DNA of 64,000 bases, taken from the NCBI GenBank assembly GCA_040754335.1, contig JBFMCV010000005.1, positions 263,586-327,585 of the forward strand. Reading direction: 5' to 3'. Source of the DNA: Thermodesulfobacteriota bacterium (GTDB taxonomy: Bacteria; Desulfobacterota_D; UBA1144; Nemesobacterales; UBA2774). A program made the position numbers and the translations under genes. Positions 37,162 through 59,097 of this stretch are shown in pieces (the first letter of the stretch is position 1; every line of letters begins with the position of its first letter). Under the pieces are notes generated by a model. It was not told the origin of the DNA, ran no database searches, and worked only from the letters and a program-made list of their open reading frames with translations.

Positions 37162-38775
37162 CTATTCCCTCACCCTGTACAGCTTGTATCCGCCGATCTC
37201 TTTCTCGAGATAATAATTATCGCTGATGAACTCGTCGATATAGTCGATGCGGGTTATCTGCCCTTCGTGTTTACCTTCATAGACAACGAAATATTCGGGC
37301 TTGTTGGCGTTTAACGCCGGCGGCACCGTTTCCTTAAGATTTAATATCTCGAAGAGGACTTCGTGGTGATTGGGCCACCAGAAGTCTTTTATAGGCGCCC
37401 TTCTGTCTGAAAGGAATTGTACTATAGGCTGCCCGCCGATAACGAGAATGGTGTCATCCTCCGAAGTATTGCTTCTTATATAATCGGCGACCGCGTAGCT
37501 TGTGTCCGCTTCGAACCACACCTTGTCTTCGTTCTTCACGTACCGGATCGTCTCCGTTACGGGGTAGTGGACCAGGAACACCGCCGCGAGTATGACGATC
37601 AGCGCCTGGACGTATTTTCCACCGAGCCCGAGCTTCGAGACGCCGAGAGCGGTCAATAGAGAGAAAGACAGGCTCATTTGAAGGTAATAGTGCGGAAACA
37701 TACGCCTTCCCCAGAGCACTCCGACGAGCGAGAGAACCGTTAGAGCTGCGATGAACAGGAGAGACCTTTTTCCCTCGTCGCCGAACTTCCGCCTAAAAAG
37801 CTGAATCAGGATGACTAACGACGAAACGGTGGCCAGGAGCGTCGTGAAGTCTCGGCTCCATACGACAGCACCGTAAATAAAATAGTACAGGTTATCTACC
37901 GCTTCCCTGAACGAAACAGCCCCTACGTATCTGCCGTTGATAACGAAATACGTATAATAGAAATCGTATACGGCTCCGTGAATCGAAAAATATATGGTGA
38001 GGACCGATACTATCGACAGGACGCCCAGGGAGTACGAGGCCGATTCCTTTATGAACGATTTTATATCGAACCTTCGGTGTTTAACGTTCCTGTAAATTAT
38101 AAACAGAGGCACTACGAAGGCTGAGAACACCGCTGTGCCCTTCGTAAAGAAAGCAGCCGCCGTAAAAAATCCGCTCAGGAATAAAAGCGTCAATCCCCCT
38201 TTTTTCTCATAATCCAGAAAACAGAGAAGAGCCAGAATTACTGGAAGCATCATGAAGAGCTCGCCGTTTGAGGCCAGCCCTCCCATACCCGGCGTCGTAA
38301 AACTCAGGCCGTAGATTAAAGGCGGGATAAGGGATGTAAAGCCCTGAAAGAACCTCCGGGCCAACAAATAGACGAAGAACATGGATAGAAGAAGATAGAG
38401 CGTGGTATAGATGCGAAGCGCGGCGATGCTTTCGTCGAAGAGGAGGATCACGGGGACGAACGCGAAGAATAGAAAAGGGCCTTTTGTGTCCCAGGAGGTC
38501 TTATAAGGCACTCCCCCGTTAGCTACGTCCTGGGCGATAGTAAAGTAAACGGACTCGTCCCAGTCTATCACCGAGACGTCCGCGACCGGCAGCCTAAGTG
38601 CGAAAATCAGAAGCATTATCAGGAATAGCCAGACGGACTGGCTGTTTAACAAGCCTTTAAGTGTCATCTTCTCATCCGTTCCCACGTGGGGACATATTAT
38701 AATATTCGATTCATTTTGTGAAGCTGCACGTTCATCCCGGAGGCGGGATTTGACTGATCGACGAGAGCGAAGCAA
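37162..38775 (-). CDS. GT-C fold integral-membrane glycosyltransferase (GT39/GT83, ArnT/PMT-like)
   Basis: About 12 TM helices. First-loop motif VIDWDESVYF resembling the DE motif of PMT/ArnT. 537 aa. Confidence 0.65.
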   Translation of the reverse strand: MLRSRRSVKSRLRDERAASQNESNIIICPHVGTDEKMTLKGLLNSQSVWLFLIMLLIFALRLPVADVSVIDWDESVYFTIAQDVANGGVPYKTSWDTKGPFLFFAFVPVILLFDESIAALRIYTTLYLLLSMFFVYLLARRFFQGFTSLIPPLIYGLSFTTPGMGGLASNGELFMMLPVILALLCFLDYEKKGGLTLLFLSGFFTAAAFFTKGTAVFSAFVVPLFIIYRNVKHRRFDIKSFIKESASYSLGVLSIVSVLTIYFSIHGAVYDFYYTYFVINGRYVGAVSFREAVDNLYYFIYGAVVWSRDFTTLLATVSSLVILIQLFRRKFGDEGKRSLLFIAALTVLSLVGVLWGRRMFPHYYLQMSLSFSLLTALGVSKLGLGGKYVQALIVILAAVFLVHYPVTETIRYVKNEDKVWFEADTSYAVADYIRSNTSEDDTILVIGGQPIVQFLSDRRAPIKDFWWPNHHEVLFEILNLKETVPPALNANKPEYFVVYEGKHEGQITRIDYIDEFISDNYYLEKEIGGYKLYRVRE

Positions 38776-38961
38776 CTCATCCGTCCGGGTTTCATTTCAC
38801 GTAATTTATTTAGGCGCATAAGGCGGGTATCGCTTAGTTGAAATTTTCCGTGAATTAATTGTTAATCGGCGAGTACTTACACGTAAGTTATTGACAACGA
38901 AAAACGTTTAACTGTAAATTTTCAAAAGGCGTGGATTTCTTAATTTAGAGAACACTACTCA

Positions 38962-39642
38962 GAAGGAGGATTTTCAGCCGTGACGAGGATAAGGAAATAC
39001 TTCCCTCTCATTATTTTCATAATTCCGGTAACAGCGATTTTATTAATCTTAGGACCGACCAGGTTCAACAAGCCCGTAAAGGGGAGCTCCGATTCTCTGA
39101 GCGTTCGGACAGAGAACGACTTCGTTACGGACCCCGGACTTGTAGCCCTGCCCGGGGAGGACATAGTGGCTGTGCTTCTGGAATCCCAGGACTGCAGCGT
39201 TCTCGAGAAAGACACCGGGGGTAAGGGTTACGACATAATCCCGTATAGATATACGGCGCCGATGGAGCAGACGTTCTGCTGGGACGACCGGAACAAGGGT
39301 GCGGGGCATTACATGGTGCTGGTAGACGACGAGGGCGTTGAGGTTCTTCAAGTTAATGCGAACGGGGAATGCGCTACGGGGACGGTGGAGGCCGGGGATT
39401 ACGAGATGAGGGTGTTCCACGACGAGGAGACGGAGAAGAACGTGGCCGTGTTCATAGTGCCCGAGAACAACAAATCTACTCTCAGCACTGCGTCGGACGA
39501 GACGCTCGAGAATATATCAACCTTTCTCGATACGGACAGGTGCGTGGGGTGTGATCTTTCTGGGGCGAACCTTTACAATGCCGATCTCAGCGGAGTGGAC
39601 CTTGAGGGGGCGAAGCTTAATGACGCGATATTGGCTAATGCG
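38962..39642 (+). repeat. About 680 bp block nucleotide-identical to 44854-45534 (RBS plus the 5' coding region of the giant paralogs)
   Basis: Six-frame ORFs on both strands are letter-for-letter identical between the copies (e.g. 39049-39420 and 44941-45312). The offset is exactly 5892 bp. Identity decays to about 80-90% after 39642. Confidence 0.85.
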
Positions 39643-42600
39643 GATCTGAGCGGAGCAAACCTGAAAGGGGCTGAGCTTAAGAACGCTGACCTGACGGGGG
39701 CTAAGCTGAAGGGGGCGGCGCTTGCAGGAGCGGACCTCACGAACGCGGTTCTAATAAACTCGGACCTTTCGGACGCGGACCTCACCGCGGCCAACATGGA
39801 GGGCGCGGACGTAACGGGGGCTAACGTCACGGACGCTCAACTTTCAGGGGCGGTTACGACAGGGATAGTACGAAATAATATTGACACGGGTGAAGAGATT
39901 AAACCGAGGGTCCACGAGGACATGGTTTCAACCGTCACCTGCACTACTGGTGCAATAGCCGCCGGAACGGGGGAGGACCTCGATGTCACGGGCCCGTGCA
40001 CGGTCGGCGCGGGGACTTACCACTACCGCAACGTTCATATATATAACGGCGGCTCGCTCACTTTCGAGGACGCCGTAATTCATTTCTGGGCTTACAACAT
40101 ACTTGTGGAAAATAACGGGAGCCTAATTGCGGGTTCTGTAACAACTCCTATCGGCGCAGCCGGCGGTAAACTGACGATTCATTTATACGGCGAGGACCAG
40201 GGCAACGGCGGAAAAGGCGTTCTCTGCAAAACGGGCGACATGTGCGGCGTGGATACCAACATATGGAACAACGACCATACGAGCAAGCAGAGCCTGCCCG
40301 GTCCGGTATCCGACTTCTTCTACCAGTACCATCACCTGCCTGTTGACTCGGGCGATACTCATGGCTACTTCGGGTACAAGACTCTCGCGGTCTCTTACGG
40401 CGGGACTTTGAGATTGTTCGGAAAGAAGGGGGCACTTTATCCCGATACAGCTCCCTCGCCTTCCGATTCCGGAATGAGCTGGGTGCGTCTAAACGGCACG
40501 GTCAACGTCGGAGCCACGCAGCTTACGGTCGACCGTCCCGTCGATTGGGGAGTCGGGGACAGGATCGTGATCACTACGACCGACTATCTCCCCGCGCATT
40601 CCGAGGTCCTCGAAATAATAGCGCCGCCAGTCAGCAGTACGACGTTTAATTTCAAGGTCATAAACCCGTTCACGGGCGCGGAAATACCCGGCGGGCTGAA
40701 GTACAGGCACCACGGCGTCACTTACCCCCTGACCGCGATACCTACTTCATACGGAATAAACATCAAGGTCAACGGCCAGCCGGCCGCCGAGACAAGGGCT
40801 GCAGTTGCGCTGCTGTCGCGCAGCATACGCATAGTTTCGGGGGGCGACACTTTCAACGCCGCGAACCCCACGTGTGAATACGACTGCCTCAGCAGCTCCC
40901 CCGCGACCTATCACTTCGGGGGCCACACGAGCGTGAGACAAGGGGCTAAAGAGGTCAAGATACAGGGCGTCGAGTTTTACCAGCTCGGGCAGGGCGGGAG
41001 GCTCGGACACTATCCGGTCCACTTCCACATAGCGAGGCAAGTTCCGGACGGCACTTTCGTGAAGGACTCCTCCATATGGGATTCGATGACCCGGTTTATC
41101 ACCATACATGCGACCCAGGGCGTTACGCTCGCGAGAAACGTGGGTTTCATGTCCATAGGCCACGGTTTTTATCTCGAGGACGGCACGGAGATAAACAACA
41201 AGCTCTATTCGAATATAGGCATACTTGCGCGCGCGGCGGTAAACAACCCTCAGAACCCGCGCCAGGTGCCGGGCATACTCGCCTGGAGCGGGAACCCCGG
41301 CGCTCCGCTGGTTCCTTATAATTCGGATATCTACAATCCAACCGTTTTCTGGATCATGAACGGGTGGAACGATTTCGAATATAACATGGCCGCGGGCGCA
41401 ACCGGGTGCGGCGTGTGCTACTGGCTCCTTTCCGGCGCCAACAGCGGCGCTTCGCAGGGCATGAAGTGGGAATCCTACGCCTCGATGCAGAGCGGCCCGG
41501 TCAAGACGGTAGACATGAAGACGTACGAGGAAAATTTCGGCAGGGCAGGGATGACGCCTCTTAAATCGTTCGTAGGCAACTACTGCACGTCGGCAATGAT
41601 GTCCTTCAATACCGTGGGAGCCACTGATTCATGCATAGGCGTGAGCAGCTTCACTCCGCTTACCAACCCGCTGGCCGAGACGCCGGCAGGGGATAAAAAC
41701 ATGGAAACCTATTACCCGAAGGTCGACCCCGGAGGCGGACGCTTCGCCACCAGGTGCGACGGCACTGACTGCGGCCCGACGGCGATACCGAACAGGTGCA
41801 GCACCGGCGACCGGAGCAAGTGCATGGTCACTGTACTCGACAGGTACACTTCGTCCTTCCACTGGCCTCAGCAGAATTTCGCCGCGATATGGCTCCGTCC
41901 GCAGTGGTACCTCTATATAAATAGCTTCCTCTCAGACGTGCAGAACGGCGGGCTCGGCTTCGTTACCGGAGGGGACTATACGCTTGCGAGCGTAATCCCG
42001 GGTCTCTGGCAGCTTGCGACGAAATCCGTCTTCGTAGGACATACACAGACCGATAACCCTCTCTCTTCGAACGCAGGGCCGTTCAACCCGCTCAAGAGCA
42101 CAGACATGAAGATTTCCGGCCTTGTCTGCGACAACGGCGATGCCAACCACTGCAGGTCGGCAGCGGAGGGTATAAGCATGCCGATCGACAATTTCGGCGT
42201 GAATCAGCGTTTCTACAACATATACGACGGCCCCAATTACCAGGACACGAACGCGTACCTCGACATAACGGAAACAAATCTCAACCCGGTGTGCCAGCCG
42301 GGCAATTGTCCCCAGTTCGGACCGGGAATCGGCATGCCTGCATGGATGTATACGCGGGTTATAGGAGTACCTGTAAACAAGACGAAGAACGCGTGTGTCC
42401 TGCCGAACGCGGCTATAGGATGGAAACAGCCGAACGGATTTTTCTATCCCCCTGCTTTCCATTCGGAGAAGCTTTATTTCCACAATGTGGACATACGACA
42501 TTATGTGCTTGAGCCTCTTTGGGATGCCGGTACATATACAACGAATGAGGATAAAGTCAAAACGGATTACTGCACGTTTCCAGCAAGCAATATGTTCGGA

Positions 42601-44622
42601 AACTTCAGCAGTGTCGACAGGCAGACCGTGCTAAACGACGACGACGGGTCGCTCACCGGACTATTGAGTCCCCCTGTTCCCGCCAAGGGTGAAACTATTT
42701 CAGTGAACCTCGACCCCTTCTTTAACGCACCGATTGAAGCAACTGAGTGCGAGTCCTTCAACACCGCAAAAACGAGTCCGTACGAGTACCTATCTACCAT
42801 TATTTATCCGGGTTGTGTGGGGAACAAGGACTGCGGCGCAAAGTGCGCCATCGACCAGAAGCCGTGCCTCGATAACAGCAACTGCGGCGGGGTTTGCAAG
42901 ATCGACCACAAGTCATGCTCCACTAACAACGATTGCAATTTGAGTAATCCGGACAATACGTGCGACTTTGGCCTCAATGCGTGTAATCTCAATGTTTCTT
43001 ACTGGTCAAGGCCATGTACTAACGCATCCTGCTACGGTGTCCCTCTGGAGAGGCAGCTCTTGACGTCAGCGGACAATCCTGATTTGTCCACAACGGGAAT
43101 CCGAATGGCCGGGATGGATCTCTATCAGAGGAGCATGATGACGCTCAACGACGGCGTTTATTACATTGATACGACGGTTTCGGAGGCCGAGCAGAGAAAG
43201 ACCGCGCAGAACCTGAACGTGTTTAAGCCGGGGGATACATACTATGTGTTCTTCCTCTACGCCAAGCCGAGCACGAAGCAGACATACCAGATATACGTGG
43301 GCACAGGGCTTAACCTTGACACCGATGTCAACATCGTACGTGCCAACATTGCCGGTTTTCCGATCATGTTCCCTGCAGGACCGGCCGACTGGGGCAGCGT
43401 CGGGTGGACGAAGAATTACGACAGCAATACTGGCATACTGACCGTCACTGTCGATATGAGCTCGTTCGCTACGGAATTCGCAGACACAAAGAAAGATTTC
43501 TGCCAGCCGGCGAGCTTCTGCACCCTGACCGGGGATACATGCGGATGCTCGACCTCGCTCCCGAGTGACCAGCTTGCGGCTTGCCAGGCGGGCAATATAT
43601 GCGGCAAGTGGGCGGGAAAGGATATAGACTGTCCCAAGGGCGGGTGCCTCGGTTTCTCGTTCAAACTCCCGAATCCGGGTTTCGTCGCGGACAATAAGGG
43701 GAATATCCTCCAACCCACGGGACACCGCCCAAAGCCTGTGTGCTTCCCGAACGAGGCTCCCTGGAATATAAGCCTGACGCGCGCGTCTGTTGAAGTCGCG
43801 GGCTCGTGCTCGACTACGCCGATAGACAATCCCAAGTTCTGCTCGCCGGGTGTTCCGCCTCCACCTCCGCCTCCGACCGAGCCTCCACCTCCGCCCCCGC
43901 CTCCTCCCCCAGGCGCTGATAAGGACAACGACGGAGTTGGGGACGACGTTGATTCCGACGGTGATAACGACGGCATTCCTAACAGCATGGAATCGTCATC
44001 GAGCGCTACAAACGTATTGAGCTCGACGCGCCTGACGATACTCAACGACCCCGACGGGGACGGGATACCGAACGAGTTCGACCTTGATTCGGACGGGGAC
44101 GGCATCCCCGACCACTTCGAAGCGGGCGGGAACAACGATGCGAACAGGGACGGACTTGCGGACAACCATATTGATACGGACGGGGACGGCCACCACGACG
44201 CGCACGATCCCGAAACGGGCGGCGCTCTCCTGCCGCTCCACGACACGGACGGGGACGATATACCGGACTTCCTGGATACGGATTCGGACGGGGACGGCGT
44301 TACAGACACGAATGAAACTGCGGGCTGTGTGGATGCGGACGGGGACGGTGAGCACGATAATTCCGGTGATTCGAACAGTGACGGACTTCCGGACAGCGTT
44401 CATCCCGCTACGGGCGCCCCGTGCGGTTTAATCGATTCGGACGGTGACGGGATTTTCGACCACCTCGACGCCGTGCACGACGGAGGGGGTGTTGAAGATG
44501 ACGGAGGCGGGAACTGCGCGATCGCCGGAACCGGTAGCGGCAAAGGAAGCCTCGCCGGACTCCTGCTCGCGTATTCTCTCATACCCGCAAGCATCCTTGT
44601 ACGCAGGAAGATGAGGAGTTAG
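38980..44622 (+). CDS. Giant secreted/surface protein 1 (1880 aa) with pentapeptide repeats, a large conserved core, Cys-rich inserts, a poly-Pro linker, TSP3-like Ca-binding repeats and a C-terminal sorting-like signal
   Basis: GTG start 8 nt after the RBS AAGGAGGA. N-terminal TM/signal (YFPLIIFIIPVTAILLILG). Pentapeptide repeats A(D/N)L(S/T)GA(N/K)L. Motifs shared with the paralog (RAAVALLSRSIRIVS, GVEFYQLGQGGR.G.YPVH.H, NGWNDFEYNMAAGA). PPPPPPTEPPPPPPPPPP. DxDxDG repeats (DSDGDGIPDHFE etc). C-terminus GGGNCAIAGTGSGKGSLAGLLLAYSLIPASILVRRKMRS. Confidence 0.85.
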   Translation: MTRIRKYFPLIIFIIPVTAILLILGPTRFNKPVKGSSDSLSVRTENDFVTDPGLVALPGEDIVAVLLESQDCSVLEKDTGGKGYDIIPYRYTAPMEQTFCWDDRNKGAGHYMVLVDDEGVEVLQVNANGECATGTVEAGDYEMRVFHDEETEKNVAVFIVPENNKSTLSTASDETLENISTFLDTDRCVGCDLSGANLYNADLSGVDLEGAKLNDAILANADLSGANLKGAELKNADLTGAKLKGAALAGADLTNAVLINSDLSDADLTAANMEGADVTGANVTDAQLSGAVTTGIVRNNIDTGEEIKPRVHEDMVSTVTCTTGAIAAGTGEDLDVTGPCTVGAGTYHYRNVHIYNGGSLTFEDAVIHFWAYNILVENNGSLIAGSVTTPIGAAGGKLTIHLYGEDQGNGGKGVLCKTGDMCGVDTNIWNNDHTSKQSLPGPVSDFFYQYHHLPVDSGDTHGYFGYKTLAVSYGGTLRLFGKKGALYPDTAPSPSDSGMSWVRLNGTVNVGATQLTVDRPVDWGVGDRIVITTTDYLPAHSEVLEIIAPPVSSTTFNFKVINPFTGAEIPGGLKYRHHGVTYPLTAIPTSYGINIKVNGQPAAETRAAVALLSRSIRIVSGGDTFNAANPTCEYDCLSSSPATYHFGGHTSVRQGAKEVKIQGVEFYQLGQGGRLGHYPVHFHIARQVPDGTFVKDSSIWDSMTRFITIHATQGVTLARNVGFMSIGHGFYLEDGTEINNKLYSNIGILARAAVNNPQNPRQVPGILAWSGNPGAPLVPYNSDIYNPTVFWIMNGWNDFEYNMAAGATGCGVCYWLLSGANSGASQGMKWESYASMQSGPVKTVDMKTYEENFGRAGMTPLKSFVGNYCTSAMMSFNTVGATDSCIGVSSFTPLTNPLAETPAGDKNMETYYPKVDPGGGRFATRCDGTDCGPTAIPNRCSTGDRSKCMVTVLDRYTSSFHWPQQNFAAIWLRPQWYLYINSFLSDVQNGGLGFVTGGDYTLASVIPGLWQLATKSVFVGHTQTDNPLSSNAGPFNPLKSTDMKISGLVCDNGDANHCRSAAEGISMPIDNFGVNQRFYNIYDGPNYQDTNAYLDITETNLNPVCQPGNCPQFGPGIGMPAWMYTRVIGVPVNKTKNACVLPNAAIGWKQPNGFFYPPAFHSEKLYFHNVDIRHYVLEPLWDAGTYTTNEDKVKTDYCTFPASNMFGNFSSVDRQTVLNDDDGSLTGLLSPPVPAKGETISVNLDPFFNAPIEATECESFNTAKTSPYEYLSTIIYPGCVGNKDCGAKCAIDQKPCLDNSNCGGVCKIDHKSCSTNNDCNLSNPDNTCDFGLNACNLNVSYWSRPCTNASCYGVPLERQLLTSADNPDLSTTGIRMAGMDLYQRSMMTLNDGVYYIDTTVSEAEQRKTAQNLNVFKPGDTYYVFFLYAKPSTKQTYQIYVGTGLNLDTDVNIVRANIAGFPIMFPAGPADWGSVGWTKNYDSNTGILTVTVDMSSFATEFADTKKDFCQPASFCTLTGDTCGCSTSLPSDQLAACQAGNICGKWAGKDIDCPKGGCLGFSFKLPNPGFVADNKGNILQPTGHRPKPVCFPNEAPWNISLTRASVEVAGSCSTTPIDNPKFCSPGVPPPPPPPTEPPPPPPPPPPGADKDNDGVGDDVDSDGDNDGIPNSMESSSSATNVLSSTRLTILNDPDGDGIPNEFDLDSDGDGIPDHFEAGGNNDANRDGLADNHIDTDGDGHHDAHDPETGGALLPLHDTDGDDIPDFLDTDSDGDGVTDTNETAGCVDADGDGEHDNSGDSNSDGLPDSVHPATGAPCGLIDSDGDGIFDHLDAVHDGGGVEDDGGGNCAIAGTGSGKGSLAGLLLAYSLIPASILVRRKMRS

Positions 44623-44871
44623 TACGACAAATTCGTCTGCACTCAATCGTCCTTACAGCATTGCTTCGAGCGGGGTGTCGCGTGTCGTAACGACACCCTG
44701 TTCGAAACTCCTCCCTGCGGTAAACCGGTTACCGGGTTAATCAATCGATATAAACAGTAGTCTTTTGGTTTTTTATGTTCTTTTGATATATAAATACAAG
44801 AAGCGTTAAAATTATCATGGAGTTGGATGTTTCTATAATTGGGGCAATACCTTGAAGGAGGATATTCAGCC

Positions 44872-49890: not shown

Positions 49891-50686
49891 TCAAACAGTC
49901 TCGGATCGCCCTGCCTTACTTGCTTTATAAGAGTAGTAAAGAAGGAAAGCGAGCATCGATAGCCAGATAACCGCTTGGCCGGTCCTGAATAGTGTCCCGA
50001 GCGGGGGCTGGAGCTGGAGAAAGAAGGCAGGTGAAAGTAGCCCGAGGCAGGAGAGGATTAAAATCAAGACCGCTGCTCTTCTCTGGTTTTCTGAAAGCCC
50101 TCCGCTTCTTAACAACCTGAATACCGCAACAATAGGGATTAATATCAGCAGGTCGTCATAGAGCCTGTGGTAGGTCCATAACCGCGCGATTATGGCTATG
50201 ACGCCTAGCTGGATCCATATATCCGTTTTACGGTATTTATAAACCCATATTCCCGAAGCGGCCATCAATATCAGCGAGGAAGGGAGCAGCAGGTATTTCA
50301 TGCCGAAGGGGCCTAGAAAGTGATGGATGTTGGCGTAACCGCCTCTGGTGATGATAATTGAATTAACTTCGACCCAGCGGGACGAGTATTGAATAATATC
50401 CATGTCACGGAACGAGAGCGCCAGGAATGTGAGAAAGATATATGCGGCGGCAACAGATATTATTACCCTGAAAGCTCTTTGGGAAATAAGTATTATGAGG
50501 AAAAAGGGCGCCTCCGTTTTTCTCAAGTACAAACACGAGCCGCCATATCTCGTAAGAGAGCCTCGACACGGCAAGAATACCCATTGACCACAACAACGCA
50601 TTGAGAATTCTCTTGCGGTTCCTAGCCGACCATGCTTCGATAGCGGAGAGACGGGAAAGAGTCGAGGAGCTAATGTTGAAAGCCAT
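49891..50686 (-). pseudogene. Disrupted tandem paralog of the 50953-52167 membrane protein (frameshift plus internal deletion)
   Basis: The 236 aa ORF matches the C-terminal half of the neighbour at about 70% (RGGYANIH ... IWIQLGV.AI.ARLWTYHRLYDDLLI ... FRTGQA.IWLSMLAFLLYYSYK). A separate 93 aa ORF (50405-50686) in another frame matches its N-terminus. About 100 aa of the middle are missing. Confidence 0.5.
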
Positions 50687-50952: not shown

Positions 50953-52167
50953 TCAGCTCTTGAAGACGGGTCCTGTCCTCTCTGTTTTATAGGAGTAGTA
51001 AAGAAGGAATGCCAGCATCGATAGCCAGATAAACGCCTGGCCGGTTCTGAAAGGTGTCCCGAGAGGAAAAGGGAGCTGGAGGAAGGACCCGGGAGAGAGT
51101 AGGGCCAGCCAGGAGATAAGGAGCAGGAGGTCGGCTGCGAGACTCTCATTCGGAGAAAGTTTATCAGTTCTTACTATTCTGAAGATTGCAATCATCGGAA
51201 CGATAATCAACAGGTCGTCGTACAGGCGGTGATAAGTCCAGAGACGAGCGACAATAGCAGCGACCCCGAGCTGAATCCAGATGTCAATTTTCCGGAATTT
51301 GAATAACCAGAGTGAGAACGCTGCGATGAGGACGAATGAGGCAGGGAATATTAATCGTTCGAGGCCAAGGGTAATGAGCCAGATGTGGATGTTCGCATAT
51401 CCACCCCGTGCCGCCACGGCGGAACAATCATGAAGCCAGATTTGAAGCGTCTGAACAAGGCCCTCGTCTCTGTACGATATTGCAACGTAGGTCAGAACTG
51501 AATAACCGCAGGCTGCAATAGCTAAAGGGCGGATAGCTCTTTGGGTAATGAGCGCTATCAGAAAGAACGGCGCTGTAACGGTGATCTTGAGTGAGGCAAA
51601 AAGGAAAAGCAAGGAGAGAATGACGTCCTTGATTATGCTGATTTCACGCTCGCTCTCCATCAACACAGCCGTTAGGATGCACGGAAGGAGAAAGAGGATG
51701 ACCTGACCGTTCCCGATCGTTATTCCTGTCGGGTAGATTGACAGGATAAATAGAGCAGCGAATATTCTCTCTTCCCTTTTCTCGATACCGGTTTCTGCTG
51801 ACACTATTCGAAAGAGCCACACAATTGAGACTGCATATAAAGCCGCCCAAAGCCATCTCGTCGATTCGAAGGAGAGCCATCCCGTGAGCGGCCAGATTAT
51901 CGCGTAGGTCGCGGGAAGGTGTATGATCTCAAAGAGCGCCTCTCCTTTGAACCATTGGTCGACGCTTTCATAGATGATTCTGAGATCGATCGCTCCGTTC
52001 CAATTATGGTCGAGCAGGAGGCGCCAGAACTGATATCCCAGTCTCGTTACCGCAAGTATGGACATCAAAACAAATGCGATTCTGAATAACGGCGCTCGCG
52101 GATGACGGCACCGCCGCTGAATTACGGACAACCGTTTTGTAAATGAAGCACCGGCCGGGGAGCTCAT
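50953..52167 (-). CDS. Polytopic membrane protein, putative polyprenol-phosphate-sugar-dependent glycosyltransferase (DUF2029/GT87-like, tentative)
   Basis: About 10 TM helices, 404 aa. The family assignment is by topology and size only. Confidence 0.5.
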   Translation of the reverse strand: MSSPAGASFTKRLSVIQRRCRHPRAPLFRIAFVLMSILAVTRLGYQFWRLLLDHNWNGAIDLRIIYESVDQWFKGEALFEIIHLPATYAIIWPLTGWLSFESTRWLWAALYAVSIVWLFRIVSAETGIEKREERIFAALFILSIYPTGITIGNGQVILFLLPCILTAVLMESEREISIIKDVILSLLFLFASLKITVTAPFFLIALITQRAIRPLAIAACGYSVLTYVAISYRDEGLVQTLQIWLHDCSAVAARGGYANIHIWLITLGLERLIFPASFVLIAAFSLWLFKFRKIDIWIQLGVAAIVARLWTYHRLYDDLLIIVPMIAIFRIVRTDKLSPNESLAADLLLLISWLALLSPGSFLQLPFPLGTPFRTGQAFIWLSMLAFLLYYSYKTERTGPVFKS

Positions 52168-52407: not shown

Positions 52408-53838
52408 ATGATGAAGGTCGGTGTCATAGGCGCGGGTCCCGCTGGTCTCTCATGTGCGTATCAGCTGGCTAAGGCGGGTATAAAAACAGACGTGTACGAG
52501 GCGAGCGGTCACGTCGGCGGGCTTGCGAGGTCGTTTGACCTGTGGGATCAGCGTGTCGATCTTGGACCACACCGTTTTTTCAGCAAAGACCCCCGCGTAA
52601 ACAGGCTCTGGCTCGAGGTAGTGGGCAGGGACTATCTGATGGTCGACCGATTGACGAGGATCTTGTACAATAACCGGTTCTACCGCTACCCCCTTCAGGC
52701 GGTAGACGTCGTCACGAAGCTCGGGGCTGCCGAGATGTCTCTTTGTTTATTAAGCTACATGCGGCAGAAAGCTGCCCCTACGGAGAGCGGGGGTGAGGAG
52801 ACGTTCGAGAACTGGGTTGTCAGGAGGTTCGGCAGGAGACTGTTCGAGATTTTTTTTAAAACTTACAGCGAGAAGCTATGGGGTATACCCTGCAGCGAGC
52901 TCGACGCCGATTTCGCCGTACAGAGGATTAAAAAGTTTTCGCTTTTCGAGGCGCTCAAGGCCGCGGTCTCGACCGATAAGTCGGGTAAGCATAAGACGCT
53001 CGTAGACAGGTTCGCTTACCCCGTGGAAGGTACGGGAATGGTCTATGAGCGGATGGCGGCTTATGTCTCGGAGAAAGGCGGGAATATCTACCTGAAGGCG
53101 CCAATCAAAAGGGTTATCAATACGGCACGGGAAGTTAAGGGCATCGAGCTTATGGACGGCAGGACGGAGAATTATGATAAAATCGTCTCTACTATGCCGC
53201 TGCCGCTGCTCGTTCTCGGTTTGCATGGTGCGGATACGGAGGCGATTGCTTCCGCGAAAGCCCTCAAGTTCAGGAATACAATACTGGTCTATCTGAATGT
53301 CCGGAACGATAATCTATTCCCCGACAACTGGGTTTATGTCCATTCGCCGCAGATGAAGGTGGGGAGGATCACAAATTTCAGGAACTGGTCGCCCCGTTTA
53401 TACGGAGCGTCAAGCAACTCGATACTGGCGCTCGAATACTGGTGCGATGAATCGGACGCATTCTGGTCATGGGACGATAATAAGCTGATCGAATTGGGAA
53501 TGAAGGAGATAAACGACACGGGGCTCGCGAGGGCCGGAGATACGAGCGAGGGTTATGTGCACCGAATAAACAGATGCTATCCGGTATACATGAAAGGGTA
53601 CAAAAAACTTCTGAAACCGATTGAGAAGTACCTTGACGGAATGAAGGGGCTGACCGTGATCGGACGGTACGGTGCGTTTAAGTATAATAACCAGGACCAC
53701 AGCATATTGATGGGCATCCTGGCAGCAGAAAACATAGTTAACGGTGCGGAAAATAATCTATGGGCCACGAACACAGATTACGAATATCAGGAGTCCGCTT
53801 TGATCACGGAGACCGGCCTCGTCGAATTGAATAAATGA
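52408..53838 (+). CDS. FAD/NAD(P)-binding oxidoreductase of the amine-oxidase/UDP-galactopyranose-mutase superfamily (UGM-like)
   Basis: N-terminal dinucleotide fold VGVIGAGPAGLSCAYQLAKAGIKTDVYEASGHVGGLARSF, followed by DLGPHRFFSKDPRVNRLW, resembling the Glf GAHIFHTND segment. 476 aa. Confidence 0.65.
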   Translation: MMKVGVIGAGPAGLSCAYQLAKAGIKTDVYEASGHVGGLARSFDLWDQRVDLGPHRFFSKDPRVNRLWLEVVGRDYLMVDRLTRILYNNRFYRYPLQAVDVVTKLGAAEMSLCLLSYMRQKAAPTESGGEETFENWVVRRFGRRLFEIFFKTYSEKLWGIPCSELDADFAVQRIKKFSLFEALKAAVSTDKSGKHKTLVDRFAYPVEGTGMVYERMAAYVSEKGGNIYLKAPIKRVINTAREVKGIELMDGRTENYDKIVSTMPLPLLVLGLHGADTEAIASAKALKFRNTILVYLNVRNDNLFPDNWVYVHSPQMKVGRITNFRNWSPRLYGASSNSILALEYWCDESDAFWSWDDNKLIELGMKEINDTGLARAGDTSEGYVHRINRCYPVYMKGYKKLLKPIEKYLDGMKGLTVIGRYGAFKYNNQDHSILMGILAAENIVNGAENNLWATNTDYEYQESALITETGLVELNK

Positions 53839-53859
53839 GCGGGCATAAATCACAACATC

Positions 53860-55305
53860 ATGTCCAGAAACGGCGTTTTGCAAAGATATTCATCGCATCT
53901 CAAAATTCTGATGAAAAAAGATACTGAGGACGTGCTGTGGCGGGTCTTGTTATGGGGGATATTTGCGGGAATCCTCGTCTCTATTTTTTTCTATTCGTAT
54001 AATCGGGAATTTGATCCGGATGAAATAGAGCATTTACATACTGCATGGAAAATCGCTCAGGGTCAGGAAATATTTGTCGATTTCTTTCAGCACCATCATC
54101 CGTTCTTCGATTACTTGATTACACCAATTATCCGTACTTTCGGGGCCACCGTCGAGTCCATATTCGTTAGTCGTTATTTCATGTTATTGTTCACTGCTTG
54201 TATTTTGATTACGACCTATCTGTTGTCTCTCAGAATATTCAAGAATTCCGAAGTGGGAATCATCAGTTTGATATTGACCTCGACTGACATTACGTTTTAT
54301 ATGAAATCGATCGAGATCAGGCCCGACGTTCCGCAAGTACTGGCGGGACTTTTATCAATATATTTTTTATTTGTCTACTATGATAGAAAGTCTCTCAAGA
54401 GTCTTATAGCCAGTTCGGTATTCCTGGCAGTCTCTTTTCTTTTTCTGCAAAAAAGCATTGTTTTAATTATTGCTATCGGCGCACTGCTGCTTTACGACGT
54501 ATTCAAAAAGTACGTTACCTACCGGCATGCAGCCCTATACGCGGCGGTCTTTATAATATCGATATCGCCGTATTACATATATGTCTTGCTGAGCGGTACT
54601 TTTGAGCAATATTTTGTGACAAACTGGTTAGTCAACTATCATCTTCATGAGGGTTCAGGAATGCTGGATATCTATCTTGTAATCGCGAGAGAGAACACCA
54701 TTACGTTGGTCCTTTACCTGATAGGCGTGATAACGATGTTCGGGTTGGGCATGGAAAGGAGATTTGCTGCGCTTTCGCTCCTTCTGATGATCATCCCATC
54801 AATTTTGTTTCATAACATCTTGAGGCAGTACCTGGTGCTTGCAGTGCTCCCCTTCTGTATTATCGCGAGCTACGCGCTTTATTCGGTTTTTGACAGAAGG
54901 CTGTTCAGGCTAATCGTTGTAATAGGGGCAATATATATACCTCTAATCTACACTCACAATTATGGATTTTTCAGATTGGATAGACGGGGTCAGAGAGATC
55001 AGCTGGCTAAAATTGAATATGTGTTGTCGATAACCGACGAAAACGACAAAGTTTATGACGGCAATGTCATATTTAATGTATTTCGTGACGACATCGATTA
55101 TTTCTGGTTTTGCATGGAGCATTCGTCCTGTCTCGATGCGTATAAGAAAGTAACGGGTTACAAATATAACGTCTATGATTCGATCGTTGCAAAGAAGCCT
55201 AAAGTCATATCGACTTACGAAATTGGCAGTCTCGATGACGTAAGAATCAAGAATAACTATAAAGTGTCGGAGAGGTATCCGGATTTGTTAATAAGAGTGG
55301 ATTAG
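53860..55305 (+). CDS. GT-C-like integral-membrane glycosyltransferase candidate with a C-terminal soluble domain (paralog A)
   Basis: About 10 TM helices. First-loop motif FDPDEIEHLHTAWKI (DE motif as in PMT/ArnT). About 130 aa C-terminal soluble domain. About 60% identical to 55489-56883. Confidence 0.55.
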   Translation: MSRNGVLQRYSSHLKILMKKDTEDVLWRVLLWGIFAGILVSIFFYSYNREFDPDEIEHLHTAWKIAQGQEIFVDFFQHHHPFFDYLITPIIRTFGATVESIFVSRYFMLLFTACILITTYLLSLRIFKNSEVGIISLILTSTDITFYMKSIEIRPDVPQVLAGLLSIYFLFVYYDRKSLKSLIASSVFLAVSFLFLQKSIVLIIAIGALLLYDVFKKYVTYRHAALYAAVFIISISPYYIYVLLSGTFEQYFVTNWLVNYHLHEGSGMLDIYLVIARENTITLVLYLIGVITMFGLGMERRFAALSLLLMIIPSILFHNILRQYLVLAVLPFCIIASYALYSVFDRRLFRLIVVIGAIYIPLIYTHNYGFFRLDRRGQRDQLAKIEYVLSITDENDKVYDGNVIFNVFRDDIDYFWFCMEHSSCLDAYKKVTGYKYNVYDSIVAKKPKVISTYEIGSLDDVRIKNNYKVSERYPDLLIRVD

Positions 55306-55488
55306 GTCGATGAGAGTCGCTGAAAGAATTGATATCCACGTGGTTGGAACGGAAGAGAAAAATGTCTTAACCTTACTTTTCGCCCCGGAACCGGCCTTGT
55401 TGAATTGAATAACCGACCGGCATGCGGAGTTCATCATCATGTTTTGGCAGAAAGTGAAGTCACGGTTAGCATTGTAACTACAATCTAA

Positions 55489-56883
55489 ATGCTAAAGAAT
55501 CATAATGATATAGTCTGGACAGTTCTTCTATGGGTATTGTTTTTGGGGATACTGGTCTCCATATTTTTCTATTCGTATAACAGGGAGTATGACCAGGACG
55601 AGATCGAGCACCTGCACACGGGATGGAAGATCGTTCAGGGACAGAAAATCTATATTGACTTCTTTCAGCACCACCACCCGTTCTACGATTACATAATTGC
55701 GGCGGTCATCCGTACATATGGGGAAACCGTCGATTCCATATTCGCAAGTCGCTATGTCATGTTATTGCTCACCGCGGGGATTCTGGCTGCAACCTATCTT
55801 ATATCCGTCAGGGTGTTCAAGAGCGCCGAGGTCGGCGTCTTAAGCATGATACTGACTTCCACGGTAATTACGTTCTATATGAAAACTATAGAGATCAGGC
55901 CCGATGTCCCTCAGGCTCTTGCCGGACTTCTGTCGATATATTTCCTGTTTTCGTACTACGATAAGAAGTCTCTCAAGAGTCTTATAGCGAGCTCGGTATT
56001 CCTGGCCGTCTCTTTTCTCTTTCTGCAAAAAAGCATCGTTCTAATCGTCGCCATCGGCGCGCTGCTATTGTTCGACTTATATAAGAAGCGTATCGGATAC
56101 CGGCACGCTGTTATTTATGCGGGGACGTTCCTCATAGCGGTTTCGCCGTATTACATCTACCTGCTGCTGAGCGGCACGTTCGAGCAATATATCGTGATGA
56201 ACTGGCTCGTGAATTATTACATCCCGCAGGTCTTCGGCAAGGTTCATACTCTTGTCGCATTTTCAAGAGAGAATACAATAACATGCGTTTTTTACCTGAT
56301 AGGTCTGATAATATTGATGAGGACGGGTAAGTGCGGGAGGTTCGCAGCTCTGTCGGTCTTGCTGATGCTCTTGACCGTAATCGTATTTAACAACCTCTGG
56401 AGACAATATTTTTTGCTCTCGATTCCCCCGATTGCCATAATTGCGAGCTACGCTCTTTATTCCAGTTCCAACAGCAGGCTGATAAGACTCGTCTTTCTGA
56501 TTGGAGCCATATATTTCCCTGTGTCGTATATGCACAATTTCGCTCTTTTCAATATGGATGGGTCTCGGCAGCGTCAGCAGTTGGCCAAGATTGAGTATGT
56601 GTTATCAATAACGGACAAGGACGACAAGGTTTACGACGGCAATGTAGAATTCAACGTATTTCGCGACGATATTGATTTTGTCTGGTTCTGTATGGAGGAT
56701 CCCTCGTGTCTCGATGCCTACAGGCAGGTTGAGCCATATCAATATAACGTCTACGATTCGGTCGCCGCGCGGAATCCGAAAGTTATTTCTGATTTCGGGA
56801 TATACAGTTTCAATGACGTAAGGATAAGGAAAAAATACAAGAAGTCGGACAGATATCCTGACCTTTATATAAGAGTGGATTGA
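55489..56883 (+). CDS. GT-C-like integral-membrane glycosyltransferase candidate (paralog B, tandem)
   Basis: Same architecture and motifs (YDQDEIEHLHTGWKI ... RYPDLYIRVD). Tandem to paralog A. Confidence 0.55.
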   Translation: MLKNHNDIVWTVLLWVLFLGILVSIFFYSYNREYDQDEIEHLHTGWKIVQGQKIYIDFFQHHHPFYDYIIAAVIRTYGETVDSIFASRYVMLLLTAGILAATYLISVRVFKSAEVGVLSMILTSTVITFYMKTIEIRPDVPQALAGLLSIYFLFSYYDKKSLKSLIASSVFLAVSFLFLQKSIVLIVAIGALLLFDLYKKRIGYRHAVIYAGTFLIAVSPYYIYLLLSGTFEQYIVMNWLVNYYIPQVFGKVHTLVAFSRENTITCVFYLIGLIILMRTGKCGRFAALSVLLMLLTVIVFNNLWRQYFLLSIPPIAIIASYALYSSSNSRLIRLVFLIGAIYFPVSYMHNFALFNMDGSRQRQQLAKIEYVLSITDKDDKVYDGNVEFNVFRDDIDFVWFCMEDPSCLDAYRQVEPYQYNVYDSVAARNPKVISDFGIYSFNDVRIRKKYKKSDRYPDLYIRVD

Positions 56884-56911
56884 TGCCCGCTGACGGCATG
56901 GAGGTTATATT

Positions 56912-57469
56912 GTGATTCTGAATGACCTTGCTTTGTTTTCATCTCTTTTTCTATTCCAGATACTATTATTCTGTCTTCTGCAAATCGTAATTCTGAGGAT
57001 TTTTGCGGAAATCAACATTCTATGCTCATCGGCAGTTGCCGTCGTTCTGAGCGTATCATCGGTAACAATCCTGAGCTATTTTCTTGTCTCCGGCCTGTTT
57101 TCCACTCCCCAATCATACGCCGTTTCGGCTGCGGGGAGCGGAGCGGCTGCAGTATTCGCCTGCGGCCTCTATACGTTTTTGGGGCCGGCTACCGCGGACC
57201 GGTCATTGGCATGTCAGCTGCTGGTATTCCTTTATGGCAGGGCCGGGACCGCATACGGGCTGGAGGAACTGAATCTTCGTTTCGACTCTCTGGGTTTTAT
57301 CGAGAAGCGAATAAACGAATGCAGGAGAGAGGATATTATCGAGGATTTTAACGGAACGGTGGTATTGACGGAAAAGGGGAAAAGGATCGCGAAGGTCTAT
57401 ATATTTCTTCTCCGCTCACTCGGTCTTCGCGAAAGAAGTGATTACAAGGAATATTTCCCGAACGGTTAG
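56912..57469 (+). CDS. Hypothetical small membrane protein with a C-terminal soluble domain
   Basis: Three predicted TM segments. ORF only. Confidence 0.35.
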   Translation: MILNDLALFSSLFLFQILLFCLLQIVILRIFAEINILCSSAVAVVLSVSSVTILSYFLVSGLFSTPQSYAVSAAGSGAAAVFACGLYTFLGPATADRSLACQLLVFLYGRAGTAYGLEELNLRFDSLGFIEKRINECRREDIIEDFNGTVVLTEKGKRIAKVYIFLLRSLGLRERSDYKEYFPNG

Positions 57470-57477
57470 CACGCATA

Positions 57478-59097
57478 ATGGATGAGCGGAATAAATCTCT
57501 ATATCGCGCTCTTTTAAATTATATTCGGTGCACGGATAAGCTTTTCTGGCTGCTGCTTGTCGTCTTCGCGGGGATCCCCATATTGTATTTTTCCTATGTC
57601 CCGGTTTGGGACGGATGGCAGTTTTCCCGCTGTTACATGCAGGCGGTGACAGAGGGGTCACTGGATTGCCACAGGCACAGCGCATTTCTGCACACACTTA
57701 TTTTCAGCCTCACGCAATGGATAGATCTCGGAAATTTTCGGCTCATCTATACATTGAATTTACTGTTCGGGATTCTGGGGCTGATATGTTTTAGGTCCTT
57801 ATTGCGAAACCTTTTCGGCAGCCGCTTGTCCCCTGTCAATCTCACCTTGCTTACATTCTGCTTCGGGCTTAATCCGGTCTTTTTAGTCCACGTGATACAG
57901 CCGTCTCTCGATTTTACGCTCCCGATTTATTTGGTGATACTCCTACTTTGCCTGTTTAAGAAAAGGTTTTTATATGCAACAGCAGTGGGCATACCGCTCG
58001 TCTTCACCAAGGAATCCGGATTCATGCTCTACGGCGTAAGTGTATTTCTATTTATTCTTCTTATGGTATTAAACGATCCCTCACTGCTCAAAGATAAAAC
58101 CAAGCTCTTCAAGAAAATAAGCGTTCTGATTCTGCCTATTCCGCTCTTTGCTCTTTATATGGTCTTTGTCCCGGAAACACAAATCGGCCATTCCTGGACG
58201 GAAGGTATCATGAAGATGTTTCAGTTTTATTTGCCGGACAATATAATCCTGGCTCAGCTCGTATCATTGCTGATTATAAACTTCAATTGGATAATTACGG
58301 CATTCATTCTGGTTAACGTAATTACCCTGGGCGCTCTGTATTTAAAATCGCTGAAAAATAAGGTCGGCATAAGGCCGGTTTTTAACAGCGGGTACGAAGG
58401 CGTGTATTTTTACCTGTTGTTCATAATTATTATTTATTTCCTCACCCGCATCCCGTTCGTAAACAACCCGCGGTACATGCTGCCTGTTCTTCCGATACTG
58501 ATAATCCTGCTCGGCGGTTCGCTCATAAACGTTCTGCGGAAACAGTTGCTTATTACGGTTGCACTGGCCATGATGCTCGTGTTATTGACGGCGTCGTCTT
58601 TCAGGACTGTCGATCCGGTATCGAAAAAGATCATGGGCACGTTTCAATTCGGATCACATGAAATGCTTCAAATGGCGAGATACGACGAGCTCAAGCACGG
58701 CTTCGGAAAGGACCAGCTCGTCTATAATTTCGAGTTCACTCAATTCCATTACATAACGGAAAAGATATTCAGAAGAGTGGGGTGGGCAGGAATTTTCGCC
58801 ATCGCGCGGGAATTCACATGGCTGCCTGATTTCAGCGCTTTTGACACCGGGTCAGGTCATCGGTCCATACATGGGGAAGAGGTCAGATCTCTTCCATTCA
58901 TGTTCTCCGATGAAATTACCGCTGACAATGCTCCCCGGGAATTTTATTTTATTTCCTATCCTAATTACGACAGGGACAACGTTAACGCAAACGAGAGAGC
59001 CAGATTATCACGCATGTACGACCTTAAGGAGACTATCACGGTAGAAAACGACGGCTACAGCGTCGATGTTTATCGCTATGTGAGGAAGGATGGTTGA
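57478..59097 (+). CDS. Large polytopic membrane protein with a C-terminal soluble domain (possible third GT-C-type transferase)
   Basis: More than 10 TM helices followed by a roughly 160 aa soluble C-terminus. Lower GC, like its neighbours. Confidence 0.45.
   Translation: MDERNKSLYRALLNYIRCTDKLFWLLLVVFAGIPILYFSYVPVWDGWQFSRCYMQAVTEGSLDCHRHSAFLHTLIFSLTQWIDLGNFRLIYTLNLLFGILGLICFRSLLRNLFGSRLSPVNLTLLTFCFGLNPVFLVHVIQPSLDFTLPIYLVILLLCLFKKRFLYATAVGIPLVFTKESGFMLYGVSVFLFILLMVLNDPSLLKDKTKLFKKISVLILPIPLFALYMVFVPETQIGHSWTEGIMKMFQFYLPDNIILAQLVSLLIINFNWIITAFILVNVITLGALYLKSLKNKVGIRPVFNSGYEGVYFYLLFIIIIYFLTRIPFVNNPRYMLPVLPILIILLGGSLINVLRKQLLITVALAMMLVLLTASSFRTVDPVSKKIMGTFQFGSHEMLQMARYDELKHGFGKDQLVYNFEFTQFHYITEKIFRRVGWAGIFAIAREFTWLPDFSAFDTGSGHRSIHGEEVRSLPFMFSDEITADNAPREFYFISYPNYDRDNVNANERARLSRMYDLKETITVENDGYSVDVYRYVRKDG

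Follow-up and report, generated by a model that had tools for sequence, protein, structure and literature searches.

A conserved cluster of a UGM-like flavoenzyme and GT-C glycosyltransferase candidates beside CEMIP-like giant proteins: a candidate envelope-glycosylation module

RESULTS AND DISCUSSION

Organization and proposed function of the cluster

In a metagenome-assembled genome (MAG) of an uncultured soil bacterium, labelled Thermodesulfobacteriota, two giant CEMIP-like proteins are flanked by genes for a flavoenzyme (FAD enzyme) resembling UDP-galactopyranose mutase (UGM) and for five membrane glycosyltransferase candidates of the GT-C type. All coordinates refer to the 64,000-nt stretch of this MAG that was analysed (the window; Table 1), and numbers such as L001 denote homologous loci of relatives or metagenomes that were compared with it. 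The closest relatives carry the labels Thermodesulfobacteriota, delta proteobacterium or Candidatus Dadabacteria. We lean towards the view that the genes form a vertically inherited module for the assembly or decoration of a periplasmic glycan (envelope glycosylation), which would use lipid-linked and probably furanose donors.

The genes for the FAD enzyme, the tandem proteins PMT_2a and PMT_2b, a 185-aa membrane protein and a 539-aa polytopic protein follow each other on the same strand with gaps of 21, 183, 28 and 8 bp, and the five look like a single operon. A GT87 gene is divergent from the operon across a spacer of 240 bp, and a third PMT_2 gene lies on the opposite side of the two tandem giants. 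The gene positions given by the earlier note on this DNA are all correct and all of its listed genes are present, but it omitted the 185-aa protein (56912–57469) of the conserved unit.

In the proposed mechanism the FAD enzyme, as a UDP-sugar pyranose-to-furanose mutase, would supply a furanose nucleotide sugar in the cytoplasm. A GT2 polyprenyl-phosphate glycosyltransferase, present in the L001 and L003 clusters and not in the window, would load the sugar or sugars onto polyprenyl phosphate. The lipid-linked donor would then be flipped, with the 185-aa protein as a candidate helper, and the five GT-C enzymes of three families would move sugars to an acceptor on the periplasmic face. The occurrence of several different GT-C enzymes together suggests stepwise assembly or decoration of a multi-residue glycan rather than a single transfer. 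Because their adjacency is conserved in the clade, the giants, or a glycan that they bind or process, are the leading candidate for the acceptor; no less likely is a non-protein glycan of the envelope.

The UGM-like flavoenzyme

The best Pfam family for the FAD enzyme is Amino_oxidase (E 5.6e-25), and with the NCBIfam model NF005548 (PRK07208.1-4, ‘hypothetical protein’), whose cut-off is 389 bits, the protein scores 516.8. Among solved structures it is closest to the UGMs of A. fumigatus and T. cruzi, which align over residues 3–449 with E values of about 1e-25 to 3e-25, while non-UGM solved matches align only over the N-terminal Rossmann segment. The active site was compared by aligning the FAD enzyme and nine relatives with A. 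fumigatus UGM fragments. The window's enzyme retains 17 of the 20 active-site residues of the fungal UGM, and so do its orthologues; among the conserved positions are the equivalents of G61, H63, F66, Y104, Q107, F158, Y162, W167, R182, W315, Y317, R327, Y419, R447, Y453 and N457. We take the roles of the UGM residues to be those of the flavin His-loop, the diphosphate-binding Arg and Tyr residues, the uridine pocket (Y104, Q107, F158 and W167) and the sugar contacts. This mapping is supported by the fact that the residue numbers fell on the expected residue types. The FAD enzyme is thus very probably a UDP-sugar pyranose/furanose mutase, in agreement with the UGM-like assignment of the earlier note, and its sugar may be one other than galactose.

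Instead of a mutase, the protein might be an oxidoreductase (DprE1-like or of the amine-oxidase/desaturase type) whose substrate is a lipid-linked sugar or some other lipid and which tailors the donor of the GT-C enzymes. Its best Pfam family, its subthreshold scores with bacterial Glf models (given below) and its NCBIfam label would all suit such an enzyme, and some pentofuranose systems do pair FAD oxidoreductases with GT-C enzymes. However, its full-length similarity is specific to UGMs, and the residues kept are the catalytic, diphosphate-binding and uridine-binding ones of a UGM, so that we consider an oxidoreductase improbable.

PMT_2-type GT-C enzymes

Three proteins of the cluster score above the gathering cut-off of 26.1 bits of Pfam PMT_2 (PF13231): the upstream one (37162–38775) with 39.6 bits (E 7.8e-10), PMT_2a with 50.4 bits (E 3.9e-13) and PMT_2b with 54.5 bits (E 2.1e-14). 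The profile search proposed in the earlier note therefore bears out both an upstream GT39/ArnT-like enzyme with a DWDESVYF motif and two tandem PMT/ArnT-like paralogues with a DE motif. The upstream protein contains VIDWDESVYF, PMT_2a contains REFDPDEIEHLH and PMT_2b contains REYDQDEIEHLH. The acidic motifs DWDES, DPDEIEH and DQDEIEH all follow the first hydrophobic segment of their proteins, in the upstream one the first transmembrane helix. A crude hydropathy scan, which does not predict loop orientation, finds 7–11 hydrophobic segments in the three proteins and about 11 in the upstream one.

PMT_2a and PMT_2b are 67% identical over 464 aa, while the upstream protein shares just 17–19% identity with either. 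PMT_2a is 85% identical to the first protein of the L002 pair. For PMT_2b an exact-sequence look-up gave no match, although the homologue database contains a protein with 100% identity, encoded on a 351,956-bp contig of a Thermodesulfobacteriota MAG and named ‘glycosyltransferase family 39 protein’. A sequence search of solved structures with PMT_2b gave no match, and hence no solved PMT or ArnT chain. Orthologues of the upstream protein are located directly upstream of the giant in L001, L014, L015 and L026.

A probable divergent GT87 and its decayed copy

The 404-aa protein itself has no Pfam match at E ≤ 1 and no NCBIfam match. Its family is better recognized: 21 of 32 homologues, which are 36–80% identical to it, match Pfam GT87 (PF09594; best E 4e-11), and a relative with 83% identity is named ‘glycosyltransferase 87 family protein’ by NCBI. 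A GT87-family profile found no chain among solved-structure sequences. The AlphaFold model built on the homologue alignment (pLDDT 86, pTM 0.86) has PimE (9dm5/9dm7) as its best solved matches in the Foldseek PDB search, with E 1e-4, TM-score 0.62–0.69 and probability 1.0. Asp61 in the first loop is invariant in 32 family members. In PimE the catalytic Asp of the first periplasmic loop is D58, to which D61 may correspond. Since the homologues match PF09594 and the model best matches PimE, we accept the 404-aa protein as a probable divergent GT87.

A second copy is decayed. In the 236-aa open reading frame (ORF; 49891–50601), residues 199–399 are found at 49909–50511 with 58% identity to the intact GT87, and residues ~6–59 follow in another frame at 50510–50671. 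Residues ~60–198 are deleted, with the family-invariant D61 and the G152-N-G-Q155 (GNGQ) motif, and the ORF is by these signs a pseudogene. In the Dadabacteria locus L011 both GT87 genes are intact in tandem at the same position, the 416-aa gene being the positional counterpart of the remnant. The pair is ancestral, with one copy decayed in the window, and its earlier description as a GT87/DUF2029-like pair of one intact and one decayed member stands.

The 539-aa protein and its 185-aa partner

The 539-aa protein has about 10–11 transmembrane helices and a C-terminal alpha/beta domain. It shows a GT-C fold with a conserved acidic residue after the first transmembrane helix; D45 is the acidic residue of its first loop. 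Its closest fold match is the protein O-mannosyltransferase Pmt4, with Pmt2 and ArnT also found. The ‘large polytopic protein’ of the earlier note is therefore a GT-C candidate too. The family comprises about 1,500 clusters at 50% identity and has no Pfam model, and we regard it as a candidate for a previously unrecognised GT-C family on the strength of the predicted fold. A member with 26% identity sits in a polysaccharide locus with Wzx, GT2 and NeuB.

In the 185-aa protein about three to four transmembrane helices at the N-terminus precede a soluble C-terminal part. Neither Pfam nor NCBIfam gives a match; six orthologues searched against Pfam at E ≤ 10 gave sub-threshold winged-helix hints only (E 0.075–0.19). 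In all close module loci whose sequence extends far enough, the 185-aa gene adjoins 539-family genes, and it does so too in the more distant loci L103, L104 and L156. In L169 a 186-aa gene abuts a 38%-identical homologue of the 539-aa protein.

Conservation of the module

The order giant, GT87, FAD enzyme, PMT_2 (one or two copies), 185-aa protein and 539-aa protein is kept in L001, L002, L009, L011, L019, L022, L028, L088, L091, L095 and L096, and holds from 85% down to about 50% identity. GT87 is missing in L022, and the 185-aa and 539-aa genes are missing in L028. L007 (37% GC) has the FAD enzyme, two PMT_2 proteins, the 185-aa protein and a split 539-aa gene without the giant and GT87; upstream of this module are MurQ, AnmK, GH3 and a transporter. 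A 229-aa GT2 is encoded between GT87 and the FAD enzyme in L001, and a 30-aa remnant is found in L028.

A paralogous module in L003 and L004 comprises GT2, LPG_synthase_TM, a UGM-like FAD protein and PMT_2. Its FAD protein is 27% identical to that of the window and has the T. cruzi UGM as its best match (E 9e-15). At a larger distance, FAD homologues lie within about 3 kb of 25–31%-identical 539-family genes in seven metagenome loci (L108, L109, L121, L137, L143, L150 and L160), and L150 also has a sugar-1-phosphate nucleotidyltransferase. This adjacency, recurring across loci, indicates that the core consists of a putative UGM-like mutase and at least one GT-C enzyme, sometimes with GT2 genes for lipid-linked donors and flippase-like genes.

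Such recurrence bears on whether the genes belong together at all. They could be functionally unrelated neighbours: a variable envelope region might have brought together several independent GT-C enzymes (e.g. an ArnT-like lipid A modifier and a modifier of O-antigen or exopolysaccharide) and a flavoenzyme that has nothing to do with them. The low identity and variable presence of the upstream PMT_2 protein would be explained in this way, as would the losses in L022 and L028, and PMT_2 is a broad family that includes ArnT. But the FAD, PMT_2, 185-aa and 539-aa genes share one strand with gaps of 8–183 bp, they stay together over the whole range of identity and even in the very AT-rich L007, and the pairing of FAD and GT-C genes repeats in the distant loci and in the L003 module. 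We find unrelated neighbours hard to credit.

In a comparison with positions 15500–30500 of the window, the paralogous module of L003 (6721–11413) lies beside a B12-binding radical-SAM-type gene, after which come ADC, methyltransferase, ABC, ComEC, IspF, IspD and PIN genes, syntenic with 18–30 kb of the window. The matching position in the window has Pfam-less ORFs, including one with 36% GC, and the second module is absent from the window.

The giant proteins and their linkage to the module

Giant A has an N-terminal membrane anchor, pentapeptide repeats, a G8 domain, a CEMIP-type beta-helix and Cys-rich regions. The Pfam match to CEMIP_beta-hel has E 1.7e-46, with G8 and Pentapeptide found in addition, and the giant matches the TMEM2 ectodomain structure 8c6i with E 2.6e-22. 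It contains 52 Cys residues and 14.8% Ser+Thr. Its C-terminal 260 aa (~43840–44622), which giant A alone possesses, consist of a poly-Pro linker, Asp-rich thrombospondin-type-3-like repeats, Cys, a hydrophobic helix and RRKMRS. This end resembles MYXO-CTERM-type signals for sorting or anchoring; the one supporting match is a weak one to NCBIfam MtsC (E 3e-5), far below the cut-off. Giant B is a paralogue with 56% identity overall; it shares the N-terminal anchor, the pentapeptide repeats, G8, the CEMIP-type beta-helix and the match to the TMEM2 ectodomain, and lacks the C-terminal Asp-rich and anchor extension. The 5' ends of the two genes are 96.6% identical at the DNA level over 865 bp (38962–39824 versus 44854–45716), including ~18 bp upstream. 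The remainder has diverged to 56% identity at the protein level, a contrast that suggests recent gene conversion within the tandem pair or, possibly, an artefact of MAG assembly.

The family of these giants is widespread, with 42–57% identity over an 800-aa core in L034–L087; the hosts are uncultured Acidobacteriaceae, Binataceae, Rokubacteria/Methylomirabilota, Burkholderiales and Gammaproteobacteria, and spot checks in these other phyla gave no conserved neighbours. It is a large bacterial counterpart of vertebrate CEMIP/TMEM2.

To the earlier note, the module looked dedicated to glycosylating surface proteins or to decorating them with a furanose-containing glycan; read as O-glycosylation of the two giants, this would mean PMT-like initiation and extension by the other GT-C enzymes. 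From the side of the module, a giant lies directly upstream in 13 of the 14 loci with enough upstream sequence, several of them from near-identical organisms. The upstream PMT_2 gene divergently adjoins the giant in the window and in the four loci named above, L007 lacks giant and GT87 together, and the nearest fold of the 539-aa protein is that of a protein O-mannosyltransferase. Bacterial GT-C protein glycosylation also has precedent in TfpW and in the glycosylation of streptococcal disordered regions.

The view from the side of the giants is quite different. A search with the giant core, limited to one genome per species, gave 80 loci, whose neighbours were scored by tblastn with the window genes. 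Module genes adjoin the giant only in eight Thermodesulfobacteriota, Dadabacteria or delta proteobacterium loci, in L019 (Spirochaetia) and in L028 (‘uncultured bacterium’), and the upstream PMT_2 alone lies near the giant in two further loci. At the 52 giant loci with full 10-kb flanks no module gene was detected by tblastn, which is blind to unrelated GT-C families; these belong to Acidobacteriaceae, Binataceae, Burkholderiales, Rokubacteria/Methylomirabilota, Gammaproteobacteria and others. When 10 flanking genes at four of the module-free loci were run against Pfam, again no GT-C appeared; the genes were those of a permease, NodZ, Lnt, a multicopper oxidase, arginine biosynthesis, BipA and a beta-lactamase. 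The co-occurrence analysis suggested earlier thus gives a strong signal within the Thermodesulfobacteriota/Dadabacteria clade and none at the 52 flanked loci of other phyla.

Within the clade, L013, a complete chromosome, has a giant and keeps the upstream synteny of the window (nucleoside transporter, sigma-70 and ECF sigma factors), with an amino-acid permease as the next gene and no module within 10 kb. Conversely, L007 and L003 carry modules of UGM-like and GT-C genes without giants. The co-occurring loci come from related genomes, and their synteny may be merely inherited. The association of giant and module is therefore real but lineage-bound, and is compatible with functional coupling and with inherited synteny alike.

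The giants also lack a Ser/Thr-rich stretch: Ser+Thr is an average 14–15%, and no 30-aa window reaches 37%. The scan gave no PMT-style acceptor region. The case for the giants as substrate is, on present comparisons, one of clade-restricted synteny alone. Dedication of the module to the two giants is weakly supported by the 13 of 14 loci, while the 52 module-free loci, L007, L013 and the Ser+Thr content speak against it; we regard it as possible but doubtful.

The genes upstream of the giants at 31500–35731 encode a nucleoside transporter, a sigma-70-family factor, a TetR regulator and an ECF sigma factor (35042–35731). ORFs equal in size and order, including a 229-aa one of the size of the ECF sigma factor, precede the giants in L009, L013, L014, L022 and L028. 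The ECF sigma factor is a candidate regulator of the giants.

Points that weigh against the proposed function

Several observations weigh against a periplasmic glycan module with furanose donors. Like the rival readings, it is built on homology, predicted folds and synteny in uncultured organisms. For the FAD enzyme, the bacterial Glf models stay below threshold (Pfam GLF PF03275, 24.0 versus 26.3; TIGR00031, 33.3 versus 303.75), so the protein lies outside the bacterial Glf equivalog as these models define it. Compared with the fungal UGM it has the sugar-pocket changes N163S, N207V and Y334W and the His-loop change G62P, which are constant in every orthologue. The donor pathway is also incomplete in the window, because no GT2, flippase or further nucleotide-sugar gene was detected. 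The GT2 search of the 64 kb used tblastn with the cluster GT2s of the relatives and a Pfam scan of 51 ORFs; no flippase (GtrA, Wzx, MATE or MprF-like) or other nucleotide-sugar gene was recognisable in the window, and a search of the window, the 240-bp GT87/FAD spacer included, for a GT2 or MprF-like gene or remnant gave nothing better than E 0.08. To our knowledge, no polyprenyl-phosphate hexofuranose donor has been described as an intermediate, and the literature searches brought none to light. The UDP-furanose could instead feed cytoplasmic transferases encoded elsewhere.

Base composition, duplication and origin

The GC content is 0.41–0.49 at 54–59 kb compared with ~0.50–0.58 nearby, and the profiles agree with the earlier statement that the genes at 53860–59097 are more AT-rich. 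GC at third codon positions (GC3) is 0.50–0.59 in PMT_2a, PMT_2b and the 185-aa and 539-aa genes, 0.56–0.58 in the GT87 copies and 0.62 in the upstream PMT_2, compared with 0.65–0.69 in the FAD enzyme and the giants and 0.64–0.77 in most other window genes. GC1 and GC2 are also low in the hydrophobic proteins of the module, where Phe, Ile, Tyr, Lys and Asn are abundant, so part of the AT-richness reflects amino-acid composition. Orthologous loci at 50–85% protein identity repeat this dip: GC3 is lower in their PMT_2, 185-aa and 539-aa genes than in the giant and FAD genes, for example 0.51/0.51/0.49 versus 0.70/0.64 in L001 and 0.61/0.64/0.64 versus 0.80/0.73 in L019.

Since both the dip and the gene order are common to the relatives, the low GC3 is an old shared property of these genes. 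The earlier suggestion of a probable horizontal acquisition is not supported by these data: the locus is most likely vertically inherited, and an acquisition as old as the ancestor of the clade is conceivable. Recent horizontal transfer as the cause of the AT-richness was rejected in view of the dip in orthologous loci together with the amino-acid composition.

The tandem duplication proposed at the same time is real, as the 67% identity of PMT_2a and PMT_2b shows. In a neighbour-joining tree of PMT_2 proteins the window's PMT_2a groups with its L002 counterpart, PMT_2b falls beside the L001 group, the second L002 protein groups with L022 and the two L007 copies group together. Tandem duplication or loss has therefore occurred more than once.

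Elsewhere in the window, three small islands greatly exceed the module in AT-richness: 14242–15027, 16990–17916 and 27425–27991, with GC3 of 0.44, 0.32 and 0.29. They encode, in this order, an ICMT/PEMT-like membrane methyltransferase, a 308-aa Pfam-less ORF and a HARE-HTH protein between ComEC and IspF. Recent foreign DNA is more plausibly seen in these islands than in the GT-C genes.

Comparison with known systems

No published description of such a system of UGM and GT-C enzymes was found, in line with the earlier note, which did not recognise it as described; subscription journals were mostly outside the search, so that this is no proof of absence. Gtr-type systems (GtrABC, CsdCD/CflA and GacIJKL; PMC10821137, PMC11194591) are alike in that a GT-C enzyme works at the outer side of the cytoplasmic membrane; its donor is presumably a polyprenyl-phosphate monosaccharide. 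Among the relatives of the window, a GT2 synthase is present in L001 and L003, as in Gtr-type systems, and the flippase-like LPG_synthase_TM in L003 only. The window differs from them in its five GT-C genes of three families instead of one, in the UGM-like flavoenzyme as first gene of the operon, and in the lack of a GT2 and of a GtrA-, Wzx- or MATE-type flippase.

The design most resembles, by analogy, the undecaprenyl-phosphate (Und-P)-pentofuranose systems and the mycobacterial machinery of decaprenyl-phosphate arabinose (DPA)/Emb/Aft and PimE. That GT-C enzymes add furanoses outside the cytoplasm, taking them from polyprenyl-phosphate donors, is established in the case of pentofuranoses (PMC11127046). 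Such addition is common to the Und-P-pentofuranose systems (Citrobacter youngae O antigen, GT136; Kelly et al. 2024, PMC11127046), P. aeruginosa TfpW and the DPA-dependent Emb/Aft enzymes, some of which also have several GT-C enzymes. Their furanose, however, is derived from phosphoribosyl pyrophosphate (PRPP) by a UbiA-like polyprenyl phosphoribose synthase and epimerases, whereas the window has no such synthase and presumably a flavin mutase acting on a nucleotide sugar; PMC11127046 mentions neither galactofuranose nor a mutase. The three GT-C families (one of them unclassified), the 185-aa partner and the adjoining CEMIP-like giants are further differences from the Und-P-pentofuranose systems and from DPA/Emb/Aft/PimE. 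The module may be a hexofuranose counterpart of the Und-P-pentofuranose systems, in which the mutase would make a UDP-furanose whose sugar passes to polyprenyl phosphate, and the 539-aa family with its 185-aa partner, PMT_2 and GT87 would use it in the periplasm for a furanose-containing glycan on the CEMIP-like giants of Dadabacteria-type bacteria. We put this forward as a speculation and think it unlikely in so specific a form.

The individual proteins can be compared in the same way. The FAD enzyme is like the eukaryote-type UGMs (A. fumigatus 3UTE and T. cruzi 4DSG) in full-length alignment and active-site residues; it differs in being bacterial, in being about 35 residues shorter and in the four substitutions given above. 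The 404-aa protein superposes on PimE, the mycobacterial polyprenyl-phosphate-mannose-dependent mannosyltransferase of GT87, over ~400 columns and has an invariant first-loop Asp, but the two are only 14–15% identical, the protein is below Pfam detection, and the host is not an actinobacterium; no phosphatidylinositol mannoside/lipoarabinomannan (PIM/LAM) pathway is implied. With GT39 PMT/Pmt and ArnT (GT83), the window proteins share the PMT_2 domain, an acidic DE-type first-loop motif, a soluble C-terminal domain and, for the 539-aa protein, the nearest folds; PMT_2b differs in its lack of a sequence-level match to a solved chain. The giants are like vertebrate CEMIP/HYBID and TMEM2, proteins of hyaluronan depolymerisation, in CEMIP_beta-hel, G8 and the match to the TMEM2 ectodomain. 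They differ in being bacterial and in their pentapeptide repeats and many Cys residues, and giant A also in its thrombospondin-3-like Asp-rich tail and C-terminal anchor. The hyaluronidase activity of TMEM2 itself is reportedly disputed (PMC10206443).

If the proposal is true, periplasmic GT-C glycosylation has, in addition to the PRPP-derived route to pentofuranoses published in 2024, a second furanose route in which a flavin mutase acts on a nucleotide sugar. The 539-aa protein defines a sizeable GT-C-fold family without a Pfam model, with a 185-aa partner outside Pfam and NCBIfam. The locus gives a first genetic lead for the bacterial G8/CEMIP-like giants, which are widespread in uncultured soil phyla, and the FAD family PRK07208.1-4, now ‘hypothetical protein’, can reasonably be annotated as UGM-like.

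Gene positions and neighbouring genes

Table 1. Genes of the cluster and its immediate surroundings in the window
Feature	Position	Strand	Remarks
Upstream PMT_2-type GT-C	37162–38775	-	537 aa from TTG start; divergent from giant A; Pfam PMT_2
Giant A	38980–44622	+	1880 aa; G8, CEMIP_beta-hel, Pentapeptide (Pfam)
Giant B	44839–49767	+	1642 aa; same Pfam domains as giant A
GT87 pseudogene	49891–50671	-	Internal deletion and frameshift; matches intact copy
Divergent GT87 (PimE-like) GT-C candidate	50953–52167	-	404 aa; 370 aa with the start of the public annotation
FAD enzyme, UGM-like	52408–53838	+	476 aa; first gene of the putative operon
PMT_2a	53860–55305	+	481 aa; DPDEIEH; soluble C-terminal domain; Pfam PMT_2
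PMT_2b	55489–56883	+	464 aa; DQDEIEH; Pfam PMT_2
185-aa membrane protein	56912–57469	+	No family match; conserved partner of 539-aa GT-C
539-aa polytopic GT-C-fold candidate	57478–59097	+	Fold match; no Pfam model for family
Na/Pi cotransporter	59171–60766	-	

The locus tags AB1598_12360 and AB1598_12385 bracket the module. In close relatives the Na/Pi cotransporter and an RTX protein often come next after the module. The window encodes a 201-aa RTX calcium-binding repeat protein at 60940–61545; this protein and the cotransporter are conserved downstream of the module in L001, L022 and L028, and in L002 and L009, too, an RTX homologue comes after the module. A 120-aa ORF (36750–37112) with an RF-1 (peptidyl-tRNA hydrolase/ArfB-like) domain is located between the region of the ECF sigma factor and the gene of the upstream PMT_2 protein. 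At the left edge of the window, 9–2075 encodes a surface-type protein of DUF11 repeats with 23% Ser+Thr.

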